A stretch of DNA of 48,081 nucleotides from Escherichia phage AN_ECEAS. The DNA is taken from the sequence record PP944860.1; one strand, given 5' to 3'. The notes beneath the pieces were generated by a model. It searched no databases and was not told where the DNA came from. It was given only the letters and a program-made list of their open reading frames with translations. The position numbers were made by a program, and so were the translations under genes. Below are positions 4,617-20,127 of the stretch, piece by piece; position 1 is the stretch's first letter, and the number at the start of each line of letters is the position of its first letter.

Positions 4617-4862
4617 ATGGTACGTTTAGAACACATTGGCGCATGCTCAGTTAACTACAAGGATAAATATTACCTTCCTGGTGATATCATTGAGGCTGAT
4701 GAAATCTGTACTGGCCTTAAAGCACTCATCGCTCAGGGTATTCTTGAGATTGAAGGTGACGGTAAGACTTCAAAGCAGATCGCGTTAGAGGTTAAGGCGA
4801 AATCTAGGCGCAAAGAACCGAAGACCATTGACGAAGCTCAGACTGGTCAGGAATATAAATAA
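4617..4862 (+). CDS. hypothetical protein (single-gene unit between two terminators)
   Basis: ORF with RBS AAAGGAG, flanked by terminators at 4532-4553 and 4869-4890. Confidence 0.5.
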   Translation: MVRLEHIGACSVNYKDKYYLPGDIIEADEICTGLKALIAQGILEIEGDGKTSKQIALEVKAKSRRKEPKTIDEAQTGQEYK

Positions 4863-5667: not shown

Positions 5668-6103
5668 GTTTGGTGGAAACCTCGAGGTTCAGACTTTCTA
5701 CAAAGACATTAACGGATGGATTGCGTTCGTTGAAGATTCCGTGAAGGATGTTGTTTATCTAACTGTTGAGAAGGCGTCTGAGGATATTGTAAAGCTATCC
5801 CCGGTTGACACAGGAAGATTTAAAGGCAACTGGCAGGTTACTGCGAACGCCCCAGCACAACAGGCACTTATCGACAGGGATGTTGCTGGCTCAGATACAA
5901 TAGCAAGGCTAAAGAGACAGGCGAGAGCTGTAGCTAATGCACAATCTACCAAGGTAATTTTCATATCTAACGTCGTTGATTATAGCGTTCATCTTGAGTA
6001 TGGTTCTTCATTGCAAGCGCCAAACGGGGTTCTTGGAGTGGTTGAGACAAGGTTAGGCAGGTATTTCTCTGAAGCGGTCGAGGAATCAAGGAGAAAACGA
6101 TAA
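5660..6103 (+). CDS. putative tail completion protein
   Basis: ATG 5660 with RBS AAGGAGG; position. Confidence 0.3.
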   Translation: MAKFGGNLEVQTFYKDINGWIAFVEDSVKDVVYLTVEKASEDIVKLSPVDTGRFKGNWQVTANAPAQQALIDRDVAGSDTIARLKRQARAVANAQSTKVIFISNVVDYSVHLEYGSSLQAPNGVLGVVETRLGRYFSEAVEESRRKR

Positions 6104-6501
6104 TGCAATATGAACTATCTTTAGCAGCAAGGAGGTTTGTAACTGATTTGGTTAAAACATTTCCAGTCAGGTATCCAATCTCCTACGAAAACGTAGCCTT
6201 TTCTCCACCAAGAAATGGTGGGATGTGGCTGAAATACGACTATACTGAGGCTGATACAGTAACCTATAGCTTGAGTCGAAAGTGCAAATACTATGTAGGC
6301 ATGGTTCAGTTATCTGTCTTTTTCTCCCCTGGTGATGGCGTTGATAAAGCGAGGAAACTAGCTAATCAATTGGCAGAATCAATGCTTGATGGTACAATGC
6401 TTGACACAGGCTACATTTATGAGGGCGGAGTAGTTCACCCGGTAGTGAAGTCAAAATCTGGCTGGTTTATTCCAGTTCGTTTCTATGTTCGTCTTGACTA
6501 A
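6103..6501 (+). CDS. putative tail terminator protein
   Basis: Translationally coupled ORF immediately upstream of the major tail gene. Confidence 0.3.
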   Translation: MQYELSLAARRFVTDLVKTFPVRYPISYENVAFSPPRNGGMWLKYDYTEADTVTYSLSRKCKYYVGMVQLSVFFSPGDGVDKARKLANQLAESMLDGTMLDTGYIYEGGVVHPVVKSKSGWFIPVRFYVRLD

Positions 6502-6512
6502 AAGGAAAATAT

Positions 6513-7172
6513 ATGGCCCATCTCAGCAATGGCACCCAGGTGTTCGTAGAAGGCACCAGGGGTGATACTATCGACGTAACGGCAATTTCCAACGCTGTTA
6601 CTCCTGTTTTAACTTTGTCCAGCGTGGCAGACATTGCACGCGGTGACTACCTGTTGTTTACCAGCTCTGCTTCAACTCTGCTTGCTGATAAGCAAGTTCG
6701 CGTTACCGCTGTAACTGGTTCCACTGTAACTGTTGAAGGTATTGATACCTCCAGCACCACTAAGTTCCCTGCTGGTTTAACTGGTGAAGTGGTTAAGATT
6801 CTTAGCTGGTTTGAGGTTCCTTGCGTTCAAGACGTATCCACTGACGGCGGCGAGCAGCAGTTCGTTAACTTCCAGTGTTTGTCCGATAACCGTGAGCAAC
6901 AGATTCCAACTTACAAGTCCGCGGTAACCAACACCTATACGTTCGCGCACGAATACACCAACCCGGTATATCCGATTCTGCGTAACTATGATGAGTCTGG
7001 CCAGGTTGTTGCAATTCGCCTGTTCGTACCTCGAGCCAGTGAAATGCGTCTTCAGTCAGGAACTATCGCTTTCAACGACACCCCGAGCATTGGTGTTAAC
7101 GAAATCGAAACGGTATCCATCGCTGTTTCTATTCGCGGAAGGCTAAGTTCCGTAGCTTCTGAGCTAGCATAA
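6513..7172 (+). CDS. putative major tail protein
   Basis: 219 aa, RBS AAAAGGAAA, strong terminator downstream, precedes chaperone and tape-measure genes. Confidence 0.5.
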   Translation: MAHLSNGTQVFVEGTRGDTIDVTAISNAVTPVLTLSSVADIARGDYLLFTSSASTLLADKQVRVTAVTGSTVTVEGIDTSSTTKFPAGLTGEVVKILSWFEVPCVQDVSTDGGEQQFVNFQCLSDNREQQIPTYKSAVTNTYTFAHEYTNPVYPILRNYDESGQVVAIRLFVPRASEMRLQSGTIAFNDTPSIGVNEIETVSIAVSIRGRLSSVASELA

Positions 7173-7177
7173 TAACC

Positions 7178-7200
7178 AACCCTCTTCGGAGGGTTTTTTA
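7178..7200 (+). terminator. rho-independent terminator after major tail gene
   Basis: CCCTC-TTCG-GAGGG stem-loop plus T6. Confidence 0.75.
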
Positions 7201-7203
7201 TTG

Positions 7204-7222
7204 ATAGCACTTTTTGTTAAAG
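7204..7222 (+). promoter_or_regulatory. dyad-motif promoter element ATAGCACTTTTTGTTAAAG
   Basis: TAGCA-N5-TGTTA; TATAGT 7242-7247; CATCGAAA start region; 27-nt leader to ATG 7281. Confidence 0.6.
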
Positions 7223-7280
7223 GCTAAGTCGCGGATTGCTGTATAGTTCATTCATCGAAAAGAAATGAGAGATTAATGAA

Positions 7281-7529
7281 ATGAACAACGTAAAAAACAT
7301 CATCAAACTTGCCGCTGCTCTTGGTGCTTTCTACCTGGCAATTCAGATTGTTAACCCAACTGGTAGCGCAACCGCAAACTCTGATGCAATAAAATATCAG
7401 ACCAAATTCAATAGCGCATATTCATACTGTGAAAAAGTTGCTGGCGATAAAGTTAATCAGATTATGACGCATGGTCGCGAAGTGTGCACCGAAGTTGCTC
7501 ACAACATTGTAAAAAACGAATCAAAGTAA
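7281..7529 (+). CDS. small protein with N-terminal signal/TM segment (moron inside tail module)
   Basis: Hydrophobic N-terminus KLAAALGAFYLAIQIV; own dyad-motif promoter at 7204-7222 placed right after a terminator. Confidence 0.5.
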   Translation: MNNVKNIIKLAAALGAFYLAIQIVNPTGSATANSDAIKYQTKFNSAYSYCEKVAGDKVNQIMTHGREVCTEVAHNIVKNESK

Positions 7530-7564
7530 TATAATAATTCAACATAAACAAAGGAGATAACGAG

Positions 7565-7879
7565 ATGGCAAAATTTAAACTTTCACTAAAGGCGCTGCCT
7601 GACTTTAAACTTCCAGTTAAGTTTCAGCTTGCGAATGGTGAAGATGCGGAAGTGGTACTGACGGTTAAGCACAAGAAATCATCCGAGTTGCAGGAGATTC
7701 TTAATCGTGAGAACTTCAGTACTAAAGAATTGATTAACGAAATCTGCTCTGATTGGGATTTAGAAGAGCCATTTAACGATGAGAACGTAGATGAGTTCAC
7801 CAACCTTTTTCCGGGCGCTGTGCCATCGTTGATGGATAGCTACATGAAAGCTCTGGCAGGTCAGCGAGTAAAAAACTAA
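7565..7879 (+). CDS. tail assembly chaperone (G-like)
   Basis: Small ORF immediately upstream of tape measure; ends in slippery heptamer A_AAA_AAC. Confidence 0.6.
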   Translation: MAKFKLSLKALPDFKLPVKFQLANGEDAEVVLTVKHKKSSELQEILNRENFSTKELINEICSDWDLEEPFNDENVDEFTNLFPGAVPSLMDSYMKALAGQRVKN

Positions 7880-8193
7880 AACGCGCAGTATACTTACAAT
7901 ACCAGTCACCGCCAACGGATGCTGAACTCGAAGCTATCGGAATGAAACGTTCCGATTATGAAGGTGATGAGCCTGAAGAGTTATACTTCGATGAAACAAT
8001 GATGCAAAGCTGGGATGTGTACTGTGCCATGTCAACTCAATGGCGAGTAGGGGCTTGCGGTGCCACAGGCCTTGATTATAATTGCCTTCCATTCTTGTTC
8101 AAAGTCTATAAAATAGATGATGACGAAATGGTACTTAACGACATCAGAATACTTGAGGCTAAAGCCTTAGATATGATGAACGCCAAGAAATAG
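7565..8193 (+). CDS. tail assembly chaperone -1 frameshift fusion product (G-T-like); slip at 7870-7876
   Basis: The -1 frame is open from 7840 to 8193 and overlaps the 3' end of the G-like ORF; heptamer AAAAAAC lies in the overlap. Confidence 0.55.
7870..7876 (+). other. programmed -1 ribosomal frameshift slippery heptamer A_AAA_AAC
   Basis: X_XXY_YYZ heptamer in zero frame of 7565..7879, two codons before its stop; -1 frame continues to 8193. Confidence 0.6.
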
Positions 8194-8216
8194 CCATCCT
8201 TCGGGGTGGCTTTTTT
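8193..8216 (+). terminator. rho-independent terminator-like hairpin before tape-measure gene (possibly attenuating)
   Basis: GCCATCC-TTCG-GGGTGGC stem-loop plus T6. Confidence 0.6.
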
Positions 8217-8230
8217 ATTATGGAGACAAC

Positions 8231-11203
8231 ATGGCAACTAACGAAATTGCTGGTATCACGCTAGCCGTCGACGTAGCTCAGGTCGATAAGGGTACGCAAT
8301 CCTTACAGAAATTCAGGCAAGCAAACGAGCAAGCTGCAACAGGCATTAATAGCTTCGTCAACGCCGAACTTGTAGCCAAGACTCAAGCAAGGGACACTGC
8401 AAGGCAGCTTGAGGAGCAGCGCAAATCTTTCGCATCACTTCAGCAAGCCATAGACCCAACCGCTGCTAAATTCCTGAAGTTGCAGAAAGCAGCAACAGAT
8501 TTGGACAAAGCATTTGAATCCGGGATAGTTCCTGATGATGAATTCTTCAGGCTTGGCTCTGTTATTGAAACTCAAATCAATAAGCTAAACAGGTCTAAAG
8601 CCGCTCTTAGCGAAGAAGGCAGGGCTGCACTACAGGCATCAATAGATAAAGAGAAAGCAACAACAGCAGCGCAAAAGTTCATTCAATCTCTTGAGAACGA
8701 GGCGAATGCAGCAAGCCTGACAAGGACTGAACTTCTTCAGCTTAAGGCTGCTCAGCTAGGAGTTAGTGACCAGGCTGCACCGATTATCGACAGGATTGGA
8801 AAGGCTGCCGAGGCATCTGCGGTACAATTGCAGAAGCAAAGCTCCGCTTTTGTTAAGTCTGGGCTTAGTGCCGGTCAATACAAGCAAGCAATACGACAGC
8901 TACCAGCTCAGATTACAGATATCGGAACATCTCTTGCTGGCGGCATCCCAATCTGGCTCATTGCAATTCAGCAGGGCGGTCAGATTAAGGATAGTTTTGG
9001 TGGCATTGGCAATACAGCAAGGTTTGCATTAGCAGCCATTAATCCATTAACGGCAGTTGTTGGGACTTTGGGATTGGCTCTTGGTGCTCTTGGTGTTGCA
9101 GCTTATCAGGCCGACAAGAATACTCGCGGACTAGCATCAACGATAACACTGGTTGGCAACTCAACTATTACATCAACAGCGCAGATAAATCAGGTTGTTG
9201 ATGGAATCGAGAGCTCAACGCTAGCCACGCGCGGACTTATCCAGGAGATAGCTAACAGCCTGGTAGCAAACGGCAATCTAACGCTTACACAGATAGACAA
9301 AATAACTAAGGCAACCGCGCAGTGGGCAACTGTAACATCAACTGACTCGAAAACTATTCTTGGGTACTTTGACCAGATTACAAAGGACCCAATTCAAGGT
9401 CTGATTGCACTCGATAAGCAGTTCAACTTCCTTCAGTCAGGGCAGTTAAAATACATTGAGAATATCAGGAAGACCGCTGGAGAAACGGAGGCTGTAACAG
9501 CAGCTACAGAGCTATTCGCTAACGTTATGGAAAACAGGCTCGCGGACGTTGCGCTAAGCCTTAACCCGCTTGAAAGTGCATGGAATAGCTTCAGGAAGTT
9601 TGTAAGTGAGATCTGGGATGATATAAGCAAAAGGACGCTTGGGGCGCTTAACTTAATAACTGACGTTGTTGCGGGTACGATTGAGCAGATAAGGTCGTTA
9701 ATAAACTCCGGTGATATCCTATTAGGCGAGTTTGCAATAGCCGCAACCAAGACTCTTCAGTCAATCCCTGGACTTGGGGATTTAGGCAATGAGGCAATCG
9801 CTGAACAGCAAAAGATTGTTGATGCAGCCAAGAAGCAAAATGAGGAGTTAGCAAAAAGCATAGCTGAGCGAGATGCTAGAATCAGGAAGGGTGAGCTTGG
9901 TTATGTTGAGAGTAACAATAACACCAACCCGAGCGGCAACAAAACATCAACTGATAAGGAGTTCGGAGCAAGGAAGAAGGCGCTAGCTGATGAGCTTGAT
10001 ACAATAAAGAAAGCAAGGAGCGAGAGGAATAAGGCAGTAAAAGAAGAGAGGGATTTAACTTTATCTTATGAATCTGGTGTTCTTGCTCTTCAGGCTCAGT
10101 TAAAGGTTTTACAAGAGCACAAGACGATAAACGATGTAATAAGTAACGAACGAAAGCAACTATTCCAGGAGGAAGCAAAGTTTGCAATACTTGAGCAAAG
10201 AAAGGCCGATGGCAGCTTAACTAAGTCCCAAGCTAAGCTACTTGCTCAGAAGAATATCATTCTTGAACAGGCTAAACAGAAGGCTGAGCTTGGTGACCAG
10301 ATTGTGCTTCAGGAGAGGTCAAACAAGTTACTTGATGACAACCTCAAGAAGACTGTGCAGATTAAGAATGAGGCAAATAATGTTTCGCTTGCTGCTAATT
10401 TATCTGACAGGGAGAAGCAGAGGGCAAAAGAGCTTCAGGCTCTACAGTCCAATCAGGTAAACAAAGGTGGCTCTGTTGATGATACTGACTTTCAGGCTTT
10501 ACTCGAAGCTAGGCGTAATTTCTATGCTCAAGAGGATGCGCTACGTGAAAACTGGCTCGCTGGTGTGCAGTCATCCTTCGCAAATTGGGCAGAGAGCGCG
10601 ACAGATGCTTTCTCAATTGCTGGTGAATTAACAACTTCTGTCTTTACAGGAATTACGGAGCAGATTACTAGCCTTGTGACAACTGGCACGGCAGACTTCA
10701 GGAGTTTTACCGTTGAAATCCTGAAACAGATTGCGAAGATTGCTACTCAGCTTCTGATTGTGAAGGCGATTGAGTCAAGCTTAAGTAGCTTTGGTGGCAC
10801 TGGCGGCGCAATTGGTTCAATTGGTAGCGCTCTTGGCTTTGCTGGCGGCGGTTATACTGGTGATGGTGGGAAGTATCAACCTGCCGGAACTGTGCACCGC
10901 GGTGAGTTTGTATTCACAAAAGAAGCAACAAGCAGAATTGGCGTTAAGAATCTGTATAAGCTAATGCGAGGTTATGCAAATGGCGGTGCTGTTGGTGGGC
11001 CTTCTGGATATGCTAATGGTGGAGTTGTTGGCGGTACTAATGTCAGTGTTGGTGGTGTGACGGTTAACGTAAGCTCTGGATTTAGTAGCGGTAATGATGC
11101 TAAGGCGATAGAATCTGGAGTCAAGGTTATCGTTGCTGAGGAAATCAGCAAGTCATTCCAGCAGGGCGGCAGAGCCTTTGCTTATCTGAGGGGTTACAAC
11201 TAA
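8231..11203 (+). CDS. tail tape measure protein
   Basis: 990 aa, long helical/coiled-coil regions, Gly-rich C-terminal part, canonical position after chaperones. Confidence 0.8.
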   Translation: MATNEIAGITLAVDVAQVDKGTQSLQKFRQANEQAATGINSFVNAELVAKTQARDTARQLEEQRKSFASLQQAIDPTAAKFLKLQKAATDLDKAFESGIVPDDEFFRLGSVIETQINKLNRSKAALSEEGRAALQASIDKEKATTAAQKFIQSLENEANAASLTRTELLQLKAAQLGVSDQAAPIIDRIGKAAEASAVQLQKQSSAFVKSGLSAGQYKQAIRQLPAQITDIGTSLAGGIPIWLIAIQQGGQIKDSFGGIGNTARFALAAINPLTAVVGTLGLALGALGVAAYQADKNTRGLASTITLVGNSTITSTAQINQVVDGIESSTLATRGLIQEIANSLVANGNLTLTQIDKITKATAQWATVTSTDSKTILGYFDQITKDPIQGLIALDKQFNFLQSGQLKYIENIRKTAGETEAVTAATELFANVMENRLADVALSLNPLESAWNSFRKFVSEIWDDISKRTLGALNLITDVVAGTIEQIRSLINSGDILLGEFAIAATKTLQSIPGLGDLGNEAIAEQQKIVDAAKKQNEELAKSIAERDARIRKGELGYVESNNNTNPSGNKTSTDKEFGARKKALADELDTIKKARSERNKAVKEERDLTLSYESGVLALQAQLKVLQEHKTINDVISNERKQLFQEEAKFAILEQRKADGSLTKSQAKLLAQKNIILEQAKQKAELGDQIVLQERSNKLLDDNLKKTVQIKNEANNVSLAANLSDREKQRAKELQALQSNQVNKGGSVDDTDFQALLEARRNFYAQEDALRENWLAGVQSSFANWAESATDAFSIAGELTTSVFTGITEQITSLVTTGTADFRSFTVEILKQIAKIATQLLIVKAIESSLSSFGGTGGAIGSIGSALGFAGGGYTGDGGKYQPAGTVHRGEFVFTKEATSRIGVKNLYKLMRGYANGGAVGGPSGYANGGVVGGTNVSVGGVTVNVSSGFSSGNDAKAIESGVKVIVAEEISKSFQQGGRAFAYLRGYN

Positions 11204-11623: not shown

Positions 11624-12379
11624 ATGGCAAGTTTAAAGTTTGAAAACCAGCTTCAATCACTTTTTCCTGGTGAAGTGGTTACGCTTATTGAGGTTGACGG
11701 AAGTAAATTCGGGGCAAGGGTTTACAGGTTTCATGGGGAGAACATCTCATACACGCCTGAAGAAATCATGCAAGCCCAAGCGTCCGGCCAGCCACTACCA
11801 TCCAAGACAATCACTTTCCGTGGAGAAGAGTATGGAGCCAGGCCTTTCGGTATTAGCGGCATTAATCTTACTTCTGACGGCAAAGCAAACAAGCTCACGC
11901 TAATTTTATCAAACGTAGACCAGGCTGTTTCCGCGCTAATACGTCAGTATAATGGCATGGTTCAGGCTAAGGTGACAATTTGGGTTACTATCAGGGATAA
12001 TATCAATGAGGACGGCAGCATTGCAGATGGTGATTATCGTAAGATGGTTTACTTTATTGAGCGCCCAAAGCAGGTTGACTACAAAACTGCCTCTTTTGAG
12101 TTATCTAGCCCAATTGATATGGATGGCATTTATATTCCAGCGAGGTTAGTCCAGTCAGTATGCTACTTCGCTTCTCGCGGCTGGTATCGCAGCGGTAACG
12201 GTTGTGATTATGCCGGGAATCGATACTTTGATAAAGACAATAATCCGGTTGATGACCCTGGCCTGGATTTCTGCGCCGGAACTGTTGATGCATGTAAGTT
12301 AAGGTTTGGTGAAAACAACCAGCTATCATTTGGAGGTTGTGCCTCTGCCAGTTTACAAGCTAAGAATAACCAGAACTAA
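11624..12379 (+). CDS. minor tail protein (lambda L-like)
   Basis: 251 aa with C-terminal Cys cluster (C..C....C..C) as in gpL; position. Confidence 0.6.
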   Translation: MASLKFENQLQSLFPGEVVTLIEVDGSKFGARVYRFHGENISYTPEEIMQAQASGQPLPSKTITFRGEEYGARPFGISGINLTSDGKANKLTLILSNVDQAVSALIRQYNGMVQAKVTIWVTIRDNINEDGSIADGDYRKMVYFIERPKQVDYKTASFELSSPIDMDGIYIPARLVQSVCYFASRGWYRSGNGCDYAGNRYFDKDNNPVDDPGLDFCAGTVDACKLRFGENNQLSFGGCASASLQAKNNQN

Positions 12380-12389
12380 GGGGAGTAAA

Positions 12390-13148
12390 GTGCTTACACC
12401 AAAAGTTAAATTAGAAATCATGCGCCACGCAAAAGAGGATTACCCAAACGAATGCTGCGGGGTTGTCACACAAAAGGGCATGGCCCAGAAGTATCACAGA
12501 ATCACTAACGCATCAAAAGACCCCGAGAGTGAATTCATTCTTAATGCCAATGAGTATGCCGATATTGTCTTTAGTCTTGGCTACAGCGAATCAATTGTCT
12601 ATATCGCTCACTCACACACCGGAGATGGAGCCACCACTCGACCAAGCCCAGCAGATATATGCAGTTGCAATGAGTGTGAGATTCCTTATGTGATTGTTAG
12701 CTACCCTGAGGGGGATATGCGAATCCTTGAGCCTGAGGATATGCCGTTAGCAGGAAGGCCGTGGGGGCTTGGTAGCTTCGATTGTTGGGGGTTGATAATG
12801 GCGTTCCACGCAAAACACGGCGTTAAACTGGCTGATTACCGCGTTAATTATCCATGGTGGAACAAGGAGTATGGCGAAAATATCTATGACGAGAATTGGA
12901 TTAAGGAAGGATTTGAGCTAGTAGAAACTGATGATATTCCAGTTGGCTCCATGATTATGATGCAGGTTCAAAGTGAGACGACAAACCACGCAGGAATCTA
13001 CATTGGAGATAACAAGTTCCTGCATCACCTTTACGGAAAGATGAGTAAAGTAGATACTTATAGCGATTACTGGCGCGAGCGCACGGTTCGCATTGTTCGC
13101 CACAAAGATTTACCAGAAGGAGTAAACTACAATGCAGAGACTGATTAA
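12390..13148 (+). CDS. tail assembly protein (lambda K-like; JAB/MPN plus NlpC/P60 motifs)
   Basis: GTG 12390 with RBS AAGGGGAG just after upstream stop; JAMM-like HSHTGDGATTRPSPAD and Cys/His pair CWGL...H. Confidence 0.65.
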   Translation: MLTPKVKLEIMRHAKEDYPNECCGVVTQKGMAQKYHRITNASKDPESEFILNANEYADIVFSLGYSESIVYIAHSHTGDGATTRPSPADICSCNECEIPYVIVSYPEGDMRILEPEDMPLAGRPWGLGSFDCWGLIMAFHAKHGVKLADYRVNYPWWNKEYGENIYDENWIKEGFELVETDDIPVGSMIMMQVQSETTNHAGIYIGDNKFLHHLYGKMSKVDTYSDYWRERTVRIVRHKDLPEGVNYNAETD

Positions 13149-18544: not shown

Positions 18545-18860
18545 ATCGTATACACCTATTTACGCCTCGATACGCCATAGTTACATTAAAATATCTATAT
18601 ATATCAACCCTTTACTCTTATTATTATTATTATATATATTACTGTGTATATCATGTAACTACTATTCTGTAGTGTTCCGGTTATAATTTTTATATCATGT
18701 GATTTTATACAGTATTGCGAGGCACCCATACCTATGCACCATCCGCCAAGATCGGTATACACGATATACGCACCATTTACATTGAGCTATAGCTGGGCTC
18801 AGGCAGTGAAAAACGTAACCAATAGAAATGTCTACACGTAGTTACGGATTTATACGCGTA
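18545..18860. repeat. control region A: AT-rich (ATT)n block, 10-bp palindrome AGCTATAGCT, conserved CGTAACCAAT and ACGCGTATA boxes; paralogous to region B
   Basis: Blocks 18591-18650 and 18781-18860 align by eye with 38701-38760 and 38891-38970. Confidence 0.7.
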
Positions 18861-19155: not shown

Positions 19156-20127
19156 ATGACATTCAAAGTTTATTTAAATAACGAACTTAGCAACGAAGCC
19201 TATCACGAAGAGCAGGACCACATCTCTGGCTCTTCACTGGCTGAGATTCTTGCTACCTCACCAGCTAAATGGAAGTTTAAGCAGCGCAATAACTCTAGCG
19301 CAGCACTTAAGTTTGGCACACTAAGTCACTGCATGATGCTAGAGCGCGAGGTGTTTGACTCAACATACATGCGAGCTACTGACTTTGACGAAGTGGAAGG
19401 ATTGATTACTAGCCAAACGGCTTTATCCGCAGCGCTTAAAAAAGTTGGAGTTTCAGGCACGTCAGGGAAGGGTTATAACGAGCTTGTAGAGATGATGTAT
19501 AAGTGTGGTGAGGATTGGCCTGTTAAATGGTTAATTGAGCAGCAGGAGAGCGCTCATGCGCTAATTAGTGGCAAAGAGCTAGTTGCTGCGAAAGATTACG
19601 ATAAAGTAATTCAAATGCGAGAGGTTCTAACTAATATTCCGGCATATGATTCGGTAATTAATTCACCATCAGCGCAGAAAGAACTATCAATATTTGGTGA
19701 GATTCTCGGTTGTGGTGTTAAGGTTCGTCTTGACCATGTGGATGTTGTTGATGGTATTGTCTACATTACTGACTATAAAACTACGTCAGACGCAAGCCCG
19801 AGGGGGTTTGGGAAGTCAGCTTATGACCATGGATACCTGTGCAAGATGGCACTTCAGCGAGATCTGTTTGTGAAAGCCTTTAATGAGAAACGTAAGGTTG
19901 TAGTTCGCCTTCTGGCGCAGGAGAAAACAGAGCCTTACTTACCAATGAGCTACACTCTTACGGATGAACAGCTTAGAATTGGACGTTTACAATATTGTGA
20001 GGCACTGTCAATTTACAAGAATTGCAAGGAAACAAACATGTGGCCCGGATACTCAAACGGAGCAACGGAACAGGAGTTAATGATACCTGAATGGGTAATT
20101 AACAGTTATAAGGATATTATAAAGTGA
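19156..20127 (+). CDS. putative PD-(D/E)XK-family exonuclease (recombination partner of ERF)
   Basis: Motif ITDYKT consistent with D-x-K nuclease core; position upstream of ERF/SSB. Confidence 0.45.
   Translation: MTFKVYLNNELSNEAYHEEQDHISGSSLAEILATSPAKWKFKQRNNSSAALKFGTLSHCMMLEREVFDSTYMRATDFDEVEGLITSQTALSAALKKVGVSGTSGKGYNELVEMMYKCGEDWPVKWLIEQQESAHALISGKELVAAKDYDKVIQMREVLTNIPAYDSVINSPSAQKELSIFGEILGCGVKVRLDHVDVVDGIVYITDYKTTSDASPRGFGKSAYDHGYLCKMALQRDLFVKAFNEKRKVVVRLLAQEKTEPYLPMSYTLTDEQLRIGRLQYCEALSIYKNCKETNMWPGYSNGATEQELMIPEWVINSYKDIIK

Follow-up and report, generated by a model that had tools for sequence, protein, structure and literature searches.

A predicted -1 frameshift joining the tail assembly chaperone genes G and T of a T1-like coliphage

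Between the tail tube gene and the tape measure gene of the window (the whole stretch of DNA that we analysed, 48,081 nucleotides from Escherichia phage AN_ECEAS) lie two overlapping open reading frames, G and T, an arrangement characteristic of the G/GT type of tail chaperone locus. The question that they raise is whether T is a protein of its own, or whether it is made as a C-terminal extension of G by ribosomes that change frame at the end of that gene. The genome of the window is that of a T1-like siphophage. Across positions 7200-8400 its sequence matches that of Escherichia phage ES (OR466728; Drexlerviridae, Braunvirinae) with 100% identity; identity to five other coliphages of the Braunvirinae is about 93%, and to TR1 it is 88.7%. 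In the comparisons described below ES stands for OR466728, which has the same sequence as this locus across 7200-8400.

Gene order and anatomy of the slip site

The tail genes follow one another in the order tail terminator, tail tube, an 82-aa ORF, G, T and tape measure, and then come genes like M, L, K, I and J. The features that surround and constitute gene G are these:

6103..6501: tail terminator gene
6513..7172, + strand: tail tube (major tail) protein gene; PF08813 Phage_tail_3, E 1.4e-67
7281..7529: additional ORF of 82 aa, lying between the tube gene and G
7551..7556, + strand: Shine-Dalgarno (SD) sequence of gene G, AAGGAG, 8 nt before ATG 7565
7565..7879, + strand: gene G, from which standard decoding yields the tail assembly (tape-measure) chaperone of 104 aa; identified from its ORF and PF08748
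8231..11203, + strand: tape measure protein gene, 990 aa; PF06791 TMP_2, E 1.4e-48, and PF09718 Tape_meas_lam_C, E 2.7e-19

Residues 1-104 of G match PF08748 (Phage_TAC_4) over positions 1-124 of 124 with an E value of 1.1e-32, and with 113.2 bits against a gathering cut-off of 21.1 the protein belongs to this family; the ORF also matches phrog_569 and phrog_17368. The TAC fold of G, like the fold of the T domain described below, is a predicted one, taken from the Pfam assignment only. G is preceded by a strong ribosome-binding site, its SD:anti-SD duplex having a calculated energy of -8.7 kcal/mol compared with -6.4 kcal/mol for the tape measure gene.

The last codons of the G ORF (7565..7879) are CAG CGA GTA AAA AAC TAA. 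Since codons of the G frame start at positions equal to 2 modulo 3 (7565 mod 3 = 2), GTA occupies 7868-7870, AAA 7871-7873, AAC 7874-7876 and TAA 7877-7879. The -1 frame is open from 7840 to its own stop codon at 8191-8193 and contains the ORF 7942..8193 (7942 mod 3 = 1). An earlier note on this DNA had given this end of G, a slippery heptamer at 7870-7876, a -1 frame open over 7840-8193 and the ORF within it, and all four were verified on the sequence. The elements of the overlap are:

7840..7879, + strand: overlap open in both the 0 and the -1 frames, bounded by the stops at 7837-7839 and 7877-7879, within which the shift must fall
7870..7876, + strand: slippery heptamer A_AAA_AAC in the X_XXY_YYZ register of the 0 frame, with Lys at 7871-7873 and Asn at 7874-7876
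7877..7879, + strand: G stop codon TAA adjoining the heptamer; alignment columns T38, A39 and A40 are invariant in 15 relatives

A scripted scan found A_AAA_AAC to be the sole canonical heptamer within the 40-nt overlap 7840-7879. The word AAAAAAC itself is not enriched in the window, where 11 copies are observed and 13.7 +/- 3.3 are expected from shuffles. As the count is at chance level, the case for a frameshift must rest on context and comparison. What rises above chance is the position of this heptamer, its register and its conservation among relatives.

In the decoding that we propose, most ribosomes would initiate at the strong G ribosome-binding site, read to the TAA at 7877-7879 and release the 104-aa chaperone, and a small fraction would slip back by one nucleotide on A_AAA_AAC at 7870-7876. 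In tandem slippage, tRNA-Lys and tRNA-Asn would re-pair on AAA AAA, so that Asn is incorporated and CUA is read next, giving the junction GQRVKNLKRAVY. The shifted ribosomes would resume at CUA 7876-7878 in the -1 frame and translate 105 more codons, and the resulting 209-aa GT would carry the chaperone domain at its N-terminus and a DUF1799 domain at its C-terminus. The earlier note had predicted a trans-frame product, giving GQRVKKLKRAVY as its junction peptide; this sequence fits a slip of a single tRNA (that of Lys) or an inserted A, and not tandem slippage.

The T segment and its conservation among relatives

To the features listed above the -1 frame adds the following:

7876..8193, + strand: T segment, the -1 extension of 105 codons plus stop, which would be made solely as the C-terminal half of the 209-aa GT; PF08809
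7879..7941, + strand: 21-codon linker in the -1 frame, from the G stop to the first ATG, conserved at the protein level and free of start codons
7942..7944, + strand: ATG with which GenBank begins a distinct 'minor tail protein'; it is probably no more than an internal Met of GT

Conceptual fusion of the two frames, join(7565..7876,7876..8193), yields a GT of 209 aa. Residues 22-101 of the -1 extension match PF08809 (DUF1799) over positions 2-80 of 80 (E 1.7e-14), and at 54.2 bits, with a gathering cut-off of 26, the extension is a member of this family. The whole fusion was matched by positions 1-211 of the 213 positions of phrog_17368 with an E value of 5.5e-88. This end-to-end match means that a family of full-length fused products is already present in phage annotation. 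A search of NCBIfam with the fusion gave no match, and a PDB sequence search at E values up to 1 found no solved relative.

In ES, the -1 frame contains no ATG, GTG or TTG start between 7840 and 7941, and the linker would therefore be translated only by ribosomes coming from G. Its evolution is that of a coding sequence in the -1 frame. The entropy of the three codon positions in this frame is 0.58, 0.56 and 1.38 bits, that is, past the G stop the third position varies far more than the others (1.38 versus 0.57 bits). The excess at the third position amounts to +0.815 bits in this frame as compared with -0.39 and -0.42 bits in the other two, a value that none of 20000 permutations reached. Judged by this pattern of substitution, coding selection acts on the -1 frame beginning at the G stop.

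In order to see how far the arrangement extends, we may consider the relatives of the fusion. A tblastn search with the fusion as query retrieved 1133 phage records, 912 of which cover at least 80% of it, and among the matches listed all records that span both halves align as two pieces, in two frames. We fetched 25 loci, of which 19 are clearly distinct, with identities ranging from 99% to 26% and with hosts that include Klebsiella, Cronobacter, Enterobacter, Pseudomonas, Ralstonia and Xanthomonas. The -1 extension after the G stop measures 102-107 aa in every one of the 19 distinct loci. Most Drexlerviridae, Tls and T1 included, have A_AAA_AAC followed directly by a stop codon (the site of T1 reads GCA AAA AAC TAA). 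The more distant relatives carry other heptamers, G_GGA_AAC in Pseudomonas PseuP_222 and Ralstonia Dina and G_GGA_AAT in Xanthomonas DMF5-T1. That diverged genes should have exchanged one slippery heptamer for another at one and the same place is what would be expected of a frameshift site under selection.

The conservation of the site is also apparent at the level of single nucleotides. In the DNA alignment, GTAAAAAACTAAA is identical in 10 of the 15 aligned relatives, and the A_AAA_AAC heptamer is kept in 12 of the 15, in two of them after GCA or GAA. Third positions of G codons have a mean entropy of 1.55 bits upstream, compared with 0.0, 0.35 and 0.35 bits within the site. Position 7870, the third base of the codon that precedes AAA, is invariant in the alignment; in the Ala, Leu, Gly, Gln and Arg codons on its flanks the third positions vary without restraint. 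The synonymous sites of GTAAAAAACTAA are thus frozen amid third positions that vary nearby. The heptamer that we consider is, in short, in the right register, inside the overlap and conserved. At the protein level the conceptual fusions align continuously over the junction (...ALAGQRVKN-LKRAVYL.YQ.PPTD...), and the stretch ...ALAGQRVKN-LKRAVYLQYQSPPTDAELEAIG... is among the best conserved parts of the fusion protein.

A scan of IMG/VR with a 22-nt pattern drawn round the site returned 49 matches, nearly all on contigs of 44-53 kb. In 47 of them the match lies where a G homologue ends and is followed by LKRAV(Y/F)L in the -1 frame. The remaining matches (L050 and L060) lie in unrelated contexts and were set aside as chance occurrences.

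Sequence context and alternative explanations

We looked for stimulatory elements on both sides of the heptamer and found none. RNAalifold, applied to 15 relatives from -30 to +90, gave no consensus pairs; the folds of 7877-7960 and 7840-7930 are unexceptional, with z scores of -1.8 and +0.6, and Rfam returned no match in 7000-8500 at E values up to 1. The predicted hairpins closest on the downstream side are either weak or too distant; the sole solid one, at 7936-7956, lies 60 nt from the site and is not conserved. Upstream, an SD-like element, GGCAGGU, is found 9 nt from the site and was rejected as a candidate: its pairing energy is -6.7 kcal/mol in ES and -2.4 to -6.0 kcal/mol in relatives, in which conservation is confined to the GG of the Gly codon. 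With neither a conserved RNA structure 5-9 nt past the heptamer nor a conserved SD-like element upstream, the locus does not qualify as a case of stimulated -1 PRF of the dnaX or IS3 type, in which a heptamer is combined with a downstream hairpin or pseudoknot or with an upstream SD. A further hairpin occurs beyond the T stop:

8192..8219, + strand: hairpin and T run resembling an intrinsic terminator, between the T stop and the tape measure start; 8-bp stem with 5 GC pairs

The hairpin proper (8192-8211) is followed by TTTTTTATT and is situated about 315 nt downstream of the slip site. In the T1 record a rho-independent terminator (19508-19527) is annotated at the corresponding place, and we rejected the hairpin as a stimulator in favour of a terminator-like role. 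The earlier note had likewise dismissed a hairpin near 8193 as a stimulator, on account of its distance, a dismissal that the T run and the T1 annotation bear out.

The sole conserved feature of the context is the stop codon after the heptamer, present in 15 of 15 aligned sequences. It directly adjoins the heptamer in all 16 distinct A_AAA_AAC loci, and in PseuP_222 it comes one codon further on. Slow termination at TAA (a 'shifty stop') is a plausible contributor to the shift. The determinants would then be the slippery Lys and Asn codons, possibly together with the adjoining stop codon, and the shift appears to proceed with no need for RNA structure. The earlier note had called A_AAA_AAC classic, a term that holds for eukaryotic viruses and for IS1; in E. 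coli, however, a systematic study rates A_AA.A_AA.C, together with G_GG.A_AA.C, among the low-efficiency heptamers, which shift at more than 0.1% without stimulators and are used by IS elements (PMC4066793). In lambda the ratio of G to GT is about 30:1 (Levin et al. 1993; Xu et al. 2004, 2013, 2014; ratio and mechanism reviewed in PMC5009743), so the function calls for shifting at the level of a few per cent or below, and an efficiency in this low range is what we expect here.

The synteny, the Pfam families, the coding selection on the -1 frame, the conservation of the site and the joined coding sequence annotated in phage Tls (see below) all support the reading of the earlier note, that of a G/GT frameshift. 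On the other side stand the low rating of the heptamer in E. coli, the negative outcome of the search for stimulators, the chance-level count of the heptamer in the window and the T1-like contigs that have no canonical heptamer in the overlap. We consider it very probable that -1 ribosomal frameshifting at 7870-7876 gives rise to the GT fusion, and we have the same high confidence that G and T are decoded in the manner of lambda G/GT, both judgements being drawn from sequence comparison. Such doubt as remains about the fusion is due to the fact that we found no experiment on the frameshift cited in the literature for ES or any T1-like phage.

Three explanations would dispense with a ribosomal frameshift. 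T might be made independently, as an 83-aa protein with its own initiation codon, ATG 7942, and no fusion would be formed. The ATG-initiated ORF 7942..8193 does exist, it is annotated in this way in OR466728 and several relatives, and it would retain most of the DUF1799 match (extension residues 22-101). However, ATG 7942 has no SD pairing to speak of (its duplex, at -0.2 kcal/mol, is no better than that of 78% of the ATGs on the + strand), and in the minimum-energy fold it lies within the stem of a 9-bp hairpin. Nor is the codon kept: Braunvirinae and phiKP26 have the first ATG of the -1 frame as codon 22, but it is missing from Tls, tonnikala, T1/SH2, EcL1, Webervirus and all the distant relatives, whose first ATG comes within the conserved domain, at codons 41-91. 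The 21 codons before ATG 7942 are, besides, conserved and periodic in the -1 frame, although no initiation is available there in ES. A separate T is accordingly very unlikely, and ATG 7942 is probably merely an internal Met of GT. A frame change equivalent to the slip would also result if RNA polymerase added one A in the six-A run at 7870-7875, with the junction ...VKKLKR..., and productive realignment of this kind exists in bacteria and IS elements (PMC5009743). Yet relatives with the same architecture have sites with no homopolymer run (G_GGA_AAC, G_GGA_AAT and GCAAAGGTC), which tRNA re-pairing fits and polymerase slippage does not. Six A's are below the run length at which E. coli RNA polymerase slips appreciably. 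Judged from these sites, transcriptional slippage is unlikely as a general mechanism, and we give it hardly any weight as the explanation of this locus. Finally, the overlap could be a coincidence or the product of a sequencing error (a missing base), G and T being in truth one continuous gene or two unrelated ORFs. The lack of enrichment of the heptamer in the window would agree with this, but the two-frame arrangement recurs, in the two-frame matches among the 1133 phage records and in the 89 IMG/VR contigs examined, and all 15 aligned sequences keep the stop of the 0 frame unchanged; we regard coincidence or error as next to impossible.

A different kind of alternative is nested within the G/GT reading and concerns which tRNA slips. 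Instead of tandem slippage of tRNA-Lys and tRNA-Asn, a single tRNA may move, a variant that we hold to be possible though rather doubtful. It would take one of two forms: either tRNA-Lys would slip on A_AAA at 7870-7873 with the A site empty, giving ...RVKKLKR..., or tRNA-Asn would slip in the P site with a slow TAA in the A site, giving ...RVKNLKR.... Evidence in its favour comes from relatives whose overlap has no heptamer. Rogunavirus phiKP26 has GCA_AAG_GTC_TAA and Webervirus Alina and NJS2 have GCA_AAA_GTC/GTT_TAA, with a Lys codon that aligns with 7871-7873 of ES; a Lys-only slip at these sites would give a K-G-L or K-S-L junction, in register with the K-N-L of ES. The IMG/VR contigs with sites of the Webervirus/Rogunavirus type lack a canonical heptamer in the 0/-1 overlap in 42 of 42 cases, and the -1 extension is 105-106 aa long in all 41 of these loci that include it. 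With about half of the T1-like IMG/VR contigs examined having no canonical heptamer in the overlap, the family does not strictly depend on the heptamer as such. Single-tRNA -1 shifting on A_AAG is well documented in E. coli (PMC5009743, PMC4066793), where among -1 tetramers A_AAG ranks first and A_AAA is weak (PMC4066793), and the stop that directly adjoins the heptamer in the 16 distinct A_AAA_AAC loci would also fit. Against a single slip stand the full heptamers kept in distant relatives (G_GGA_AAC and G_GGA_AAT) and the AAC codon strictly kept in Drexlerviridae with the ES-type site, which together argue that the second slippery codon is selected, as well as the stop of PseuP_222, displaced by one codon.

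The Webervirus and Rogunavirus sites, considered by themselves, suggest that the conserved core of the signal is an A_AAR codon placed one codon before the stop, an observation that we offer as a lead and not as a result. A tentative generalization would be that in T1-like phages the essential event is a single slip of tRNA-Lys at an A_AAR codon whose position is conserved, exactly one codon ahead of the G stop, aided by that stop and not by RNA structure, with the full heptamer as an optional enhancer; we think this conceivable, and on balance doubtful. It would explain both the two-frame loci of Webervirus and Rogunavirus that have no heptamer and the use, by ES-type phages, of a heptamer that is weak in E. 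coli. If true, these phages would constitute a natural series in which to study how minimal signals set the G:GT ratio.

Comparison with known systems

The -1 frameshift site of the tail chaperone is very probably a real recoding site, and one that has already been described. Its closest counterpart is tfmA/tfmS of phage Tls, orthologous to G/GT here with about 61% identity over the fusion. Tls carries the identical site, CGC GTA AAA AAC TAA AAC G, between its major tail and tape measure genes, and in its record the two frames are joined as one CDS, the 'tape measure chaperone' tfmS, beside the short product tfmA; the join is labelled there as 'non-experimental evidence'. Nothing of substance differs between the two loci, except that ES belongs to another subfamily (Braunvirinae) and has the 82-aa ORF that separates its tube gene from G. 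The genome papers of the T1-like phages Stevie and U136B state the frameshift, citing the lambda work (PMC4319613, PMC8104045), and in U136B the chaperone is said to be made via a slippery sequence (PMC8104045).

What is new, then, is only that the ES record omits the fusion, as do the T1 RefSeq record and many others. OR466728 labels G 'hypothetical' and makes of T a 'minor tail protein' in its own right, with its start at ATG 7942. The finding matters mainly for annotation, since many relatives list G and a truncated T separately, some of them under misleading names. Properly annotated, the locus would have the feature join(7565..7876,7876..8193), marked as ribosomal slippage, for a tape-measure chaperone of 209 aa. 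The locus adds one more case to the conserved G/GT strategy for fixing a protein ratio in tail assembly, and it shows that within one phage family a weak heptamer adjoining the stop alternates with bare A_AAA or A_AAG tetramers, with no detectable stimulator.

The order of genes is that of lambda U-V-G-T-H (tail terminator, major tail, G, T in the -1 frame, tape measure), and further points of likeness are a second ORF with no start of its own, an X_XXY_YYZ heptamer near the end of G and a downstream structure that is unneeded. The presumed role is also common to both: by analogy with lambda, many copies of G and few of GT would coat the tape measure protein, the T domain would bring in the tail tube protein, allowing the tail to polymerise to its proper length, and both G and GT would be absent from the finished virion. 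The differences lie in the site and in the sequences. The heptamer is A_AAA_AAC here and G_GGA_AAG in lambda, the lambda type being among the most efficient in E. coli and that of ES among the low-efficiency ones (PMC4066793), and the stop adjoins the heptamer here, whereas in lambda it comes 5 codons after G_GGA_AAG. BLASTP of ES G against lambda G gave an E value of 0.014 over 26 residues, which does not place it in the lambda gpG/gpT family, and a Pfam scan at E values up to 1 found only PF08748 and PF08809, families other than those of lambda. By all these comparisons, this locus would work like lambda G/GT and yet stands outside the lambda gpG/gpT sequence families.

Outside phage tails, IS1 offers the nearest parallel to the site itself. 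Its insAB' uses the same heptamer, A_AAA_AAC, in the same host; there, too, a -1 shift at low level links an upstream ORF with a second one that overlaps it in the -1 frame, and it is a proven A_AAA_AAC case with no established stimulator (PMC4066793, cluster A_AAA_AAC_1). It differs in that the product is a transposase instead of a tail chaperone, and the genes and their biology are unrelated. E. coli dnaX is alike in its -1 shift at an A-rich heptamer, A_AAA_AAG, decoded by tRNA-Lys. In dnaX there are a strong SD-like element upstream and a hairpin downstream, the shift takes place at about 50%, and the shifted product is truncated. The phage locus, in contrast, has no conserved SD-like element or hairpin, and its shifted product is extended.

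G/T junctions that lack a heptamer

In many T1-like phages the canonical X_XXY_YYZ heptamer is absent from the overlap between the tail assembly chaperone gene G and its -1-frame extension T, and the two-frame G/T architecture is retained. Heptamer-less sites were found in these loci (coordinates of each locus):

L020, 1298-1315: Rogunavirus phiKP26
L015 and L024, 1310-1327: Webervirus Alina and NJS2
L077-L118: IMG/VR contigs

The sole site is GCA_AAA_GTY_TAA in 37 IMG/VR contigs and GCA_AAG_GTC_TAA in 5. Since the heptamer is missing and the Lys codon of these relatives aligns with codon 7871-7873 of Escherichia phage ES, the comparison points to single-tRNA slippage on A_AAR, with no known stimulator.

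The ATG at 7942 of ES, the annotated start of the truncated T, is enclosed by a predicted 9-bp hairpin (AUCGGAAUGAAACGUUCCGAU, 7936-7956). The aligned relatives do not conserve this hairpin, so it is probably incidental; even then, it would add to the case against internal initiation at this ATG.

Product names and gene starts

Across 6103-8193, the product names in the GenBank record of ES (OR466728) are at odds with the family assignments, as listed here together with one small ORF further upstream:

Tail terminator (PF13554): named 'tail fiber protein'
Tail tube (PF08813): named 'tail assembly protein'
G: named 'hypothetical protein'
Truncated T: named 'minor tail protein'
The small ORFs at 4617..4862 and at 7281..7529: both named 'exonuclease'

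Further downstream, two tail genes overlap as listed:

11624-12379: L-like gene
12306-13148: K-like gene (JAB and NlpC/P60 domains), given a TTG start in the ORF list

The listed TTG creates a 74-nt overlap with the L-like gene, and the true start of the K-like gene probably lies downstream of it.

Surroundings of the chaperone genes

Three features lie around G and T:

7178-7203: intrinsic-terminator-like hairpin with T run, 3' of the tail tube gene
7281-7529: ORF of 82 aa, an insertion that separates the tail tube gene from G
8192-8219: intrinsic-terminator-like hairpin with T run, in the gap that separates the stop codon of T from the start of the tape-measure gene

The two hairpins flank the chaperone genes on both sides, and rho-independent terminators are annotated at the same relative positions in the T1 record (18770-18796 and 19508-19527). 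They may tune the ratios of tube, chaperone and tape-measure transcripts. A candidate sigma-70-like promoter (7507-7535; TTGTAA, 17-nt spacer, TATAAT; 10/12) lies about 30 nt 5' of the G start, within the end of the 82-aa ORF.

This ORF has a match in phrog_22925, a family of unknown function, and none in Pfam; its Shine-Dalgarno pairing is weak (-2.9 kcal/mol). Whereas ES carries the 82-aa ORF between tube gene and G, T1 has no ORF there and TR1 has a different one of 126 aa, which marks this interval as a variable slot.
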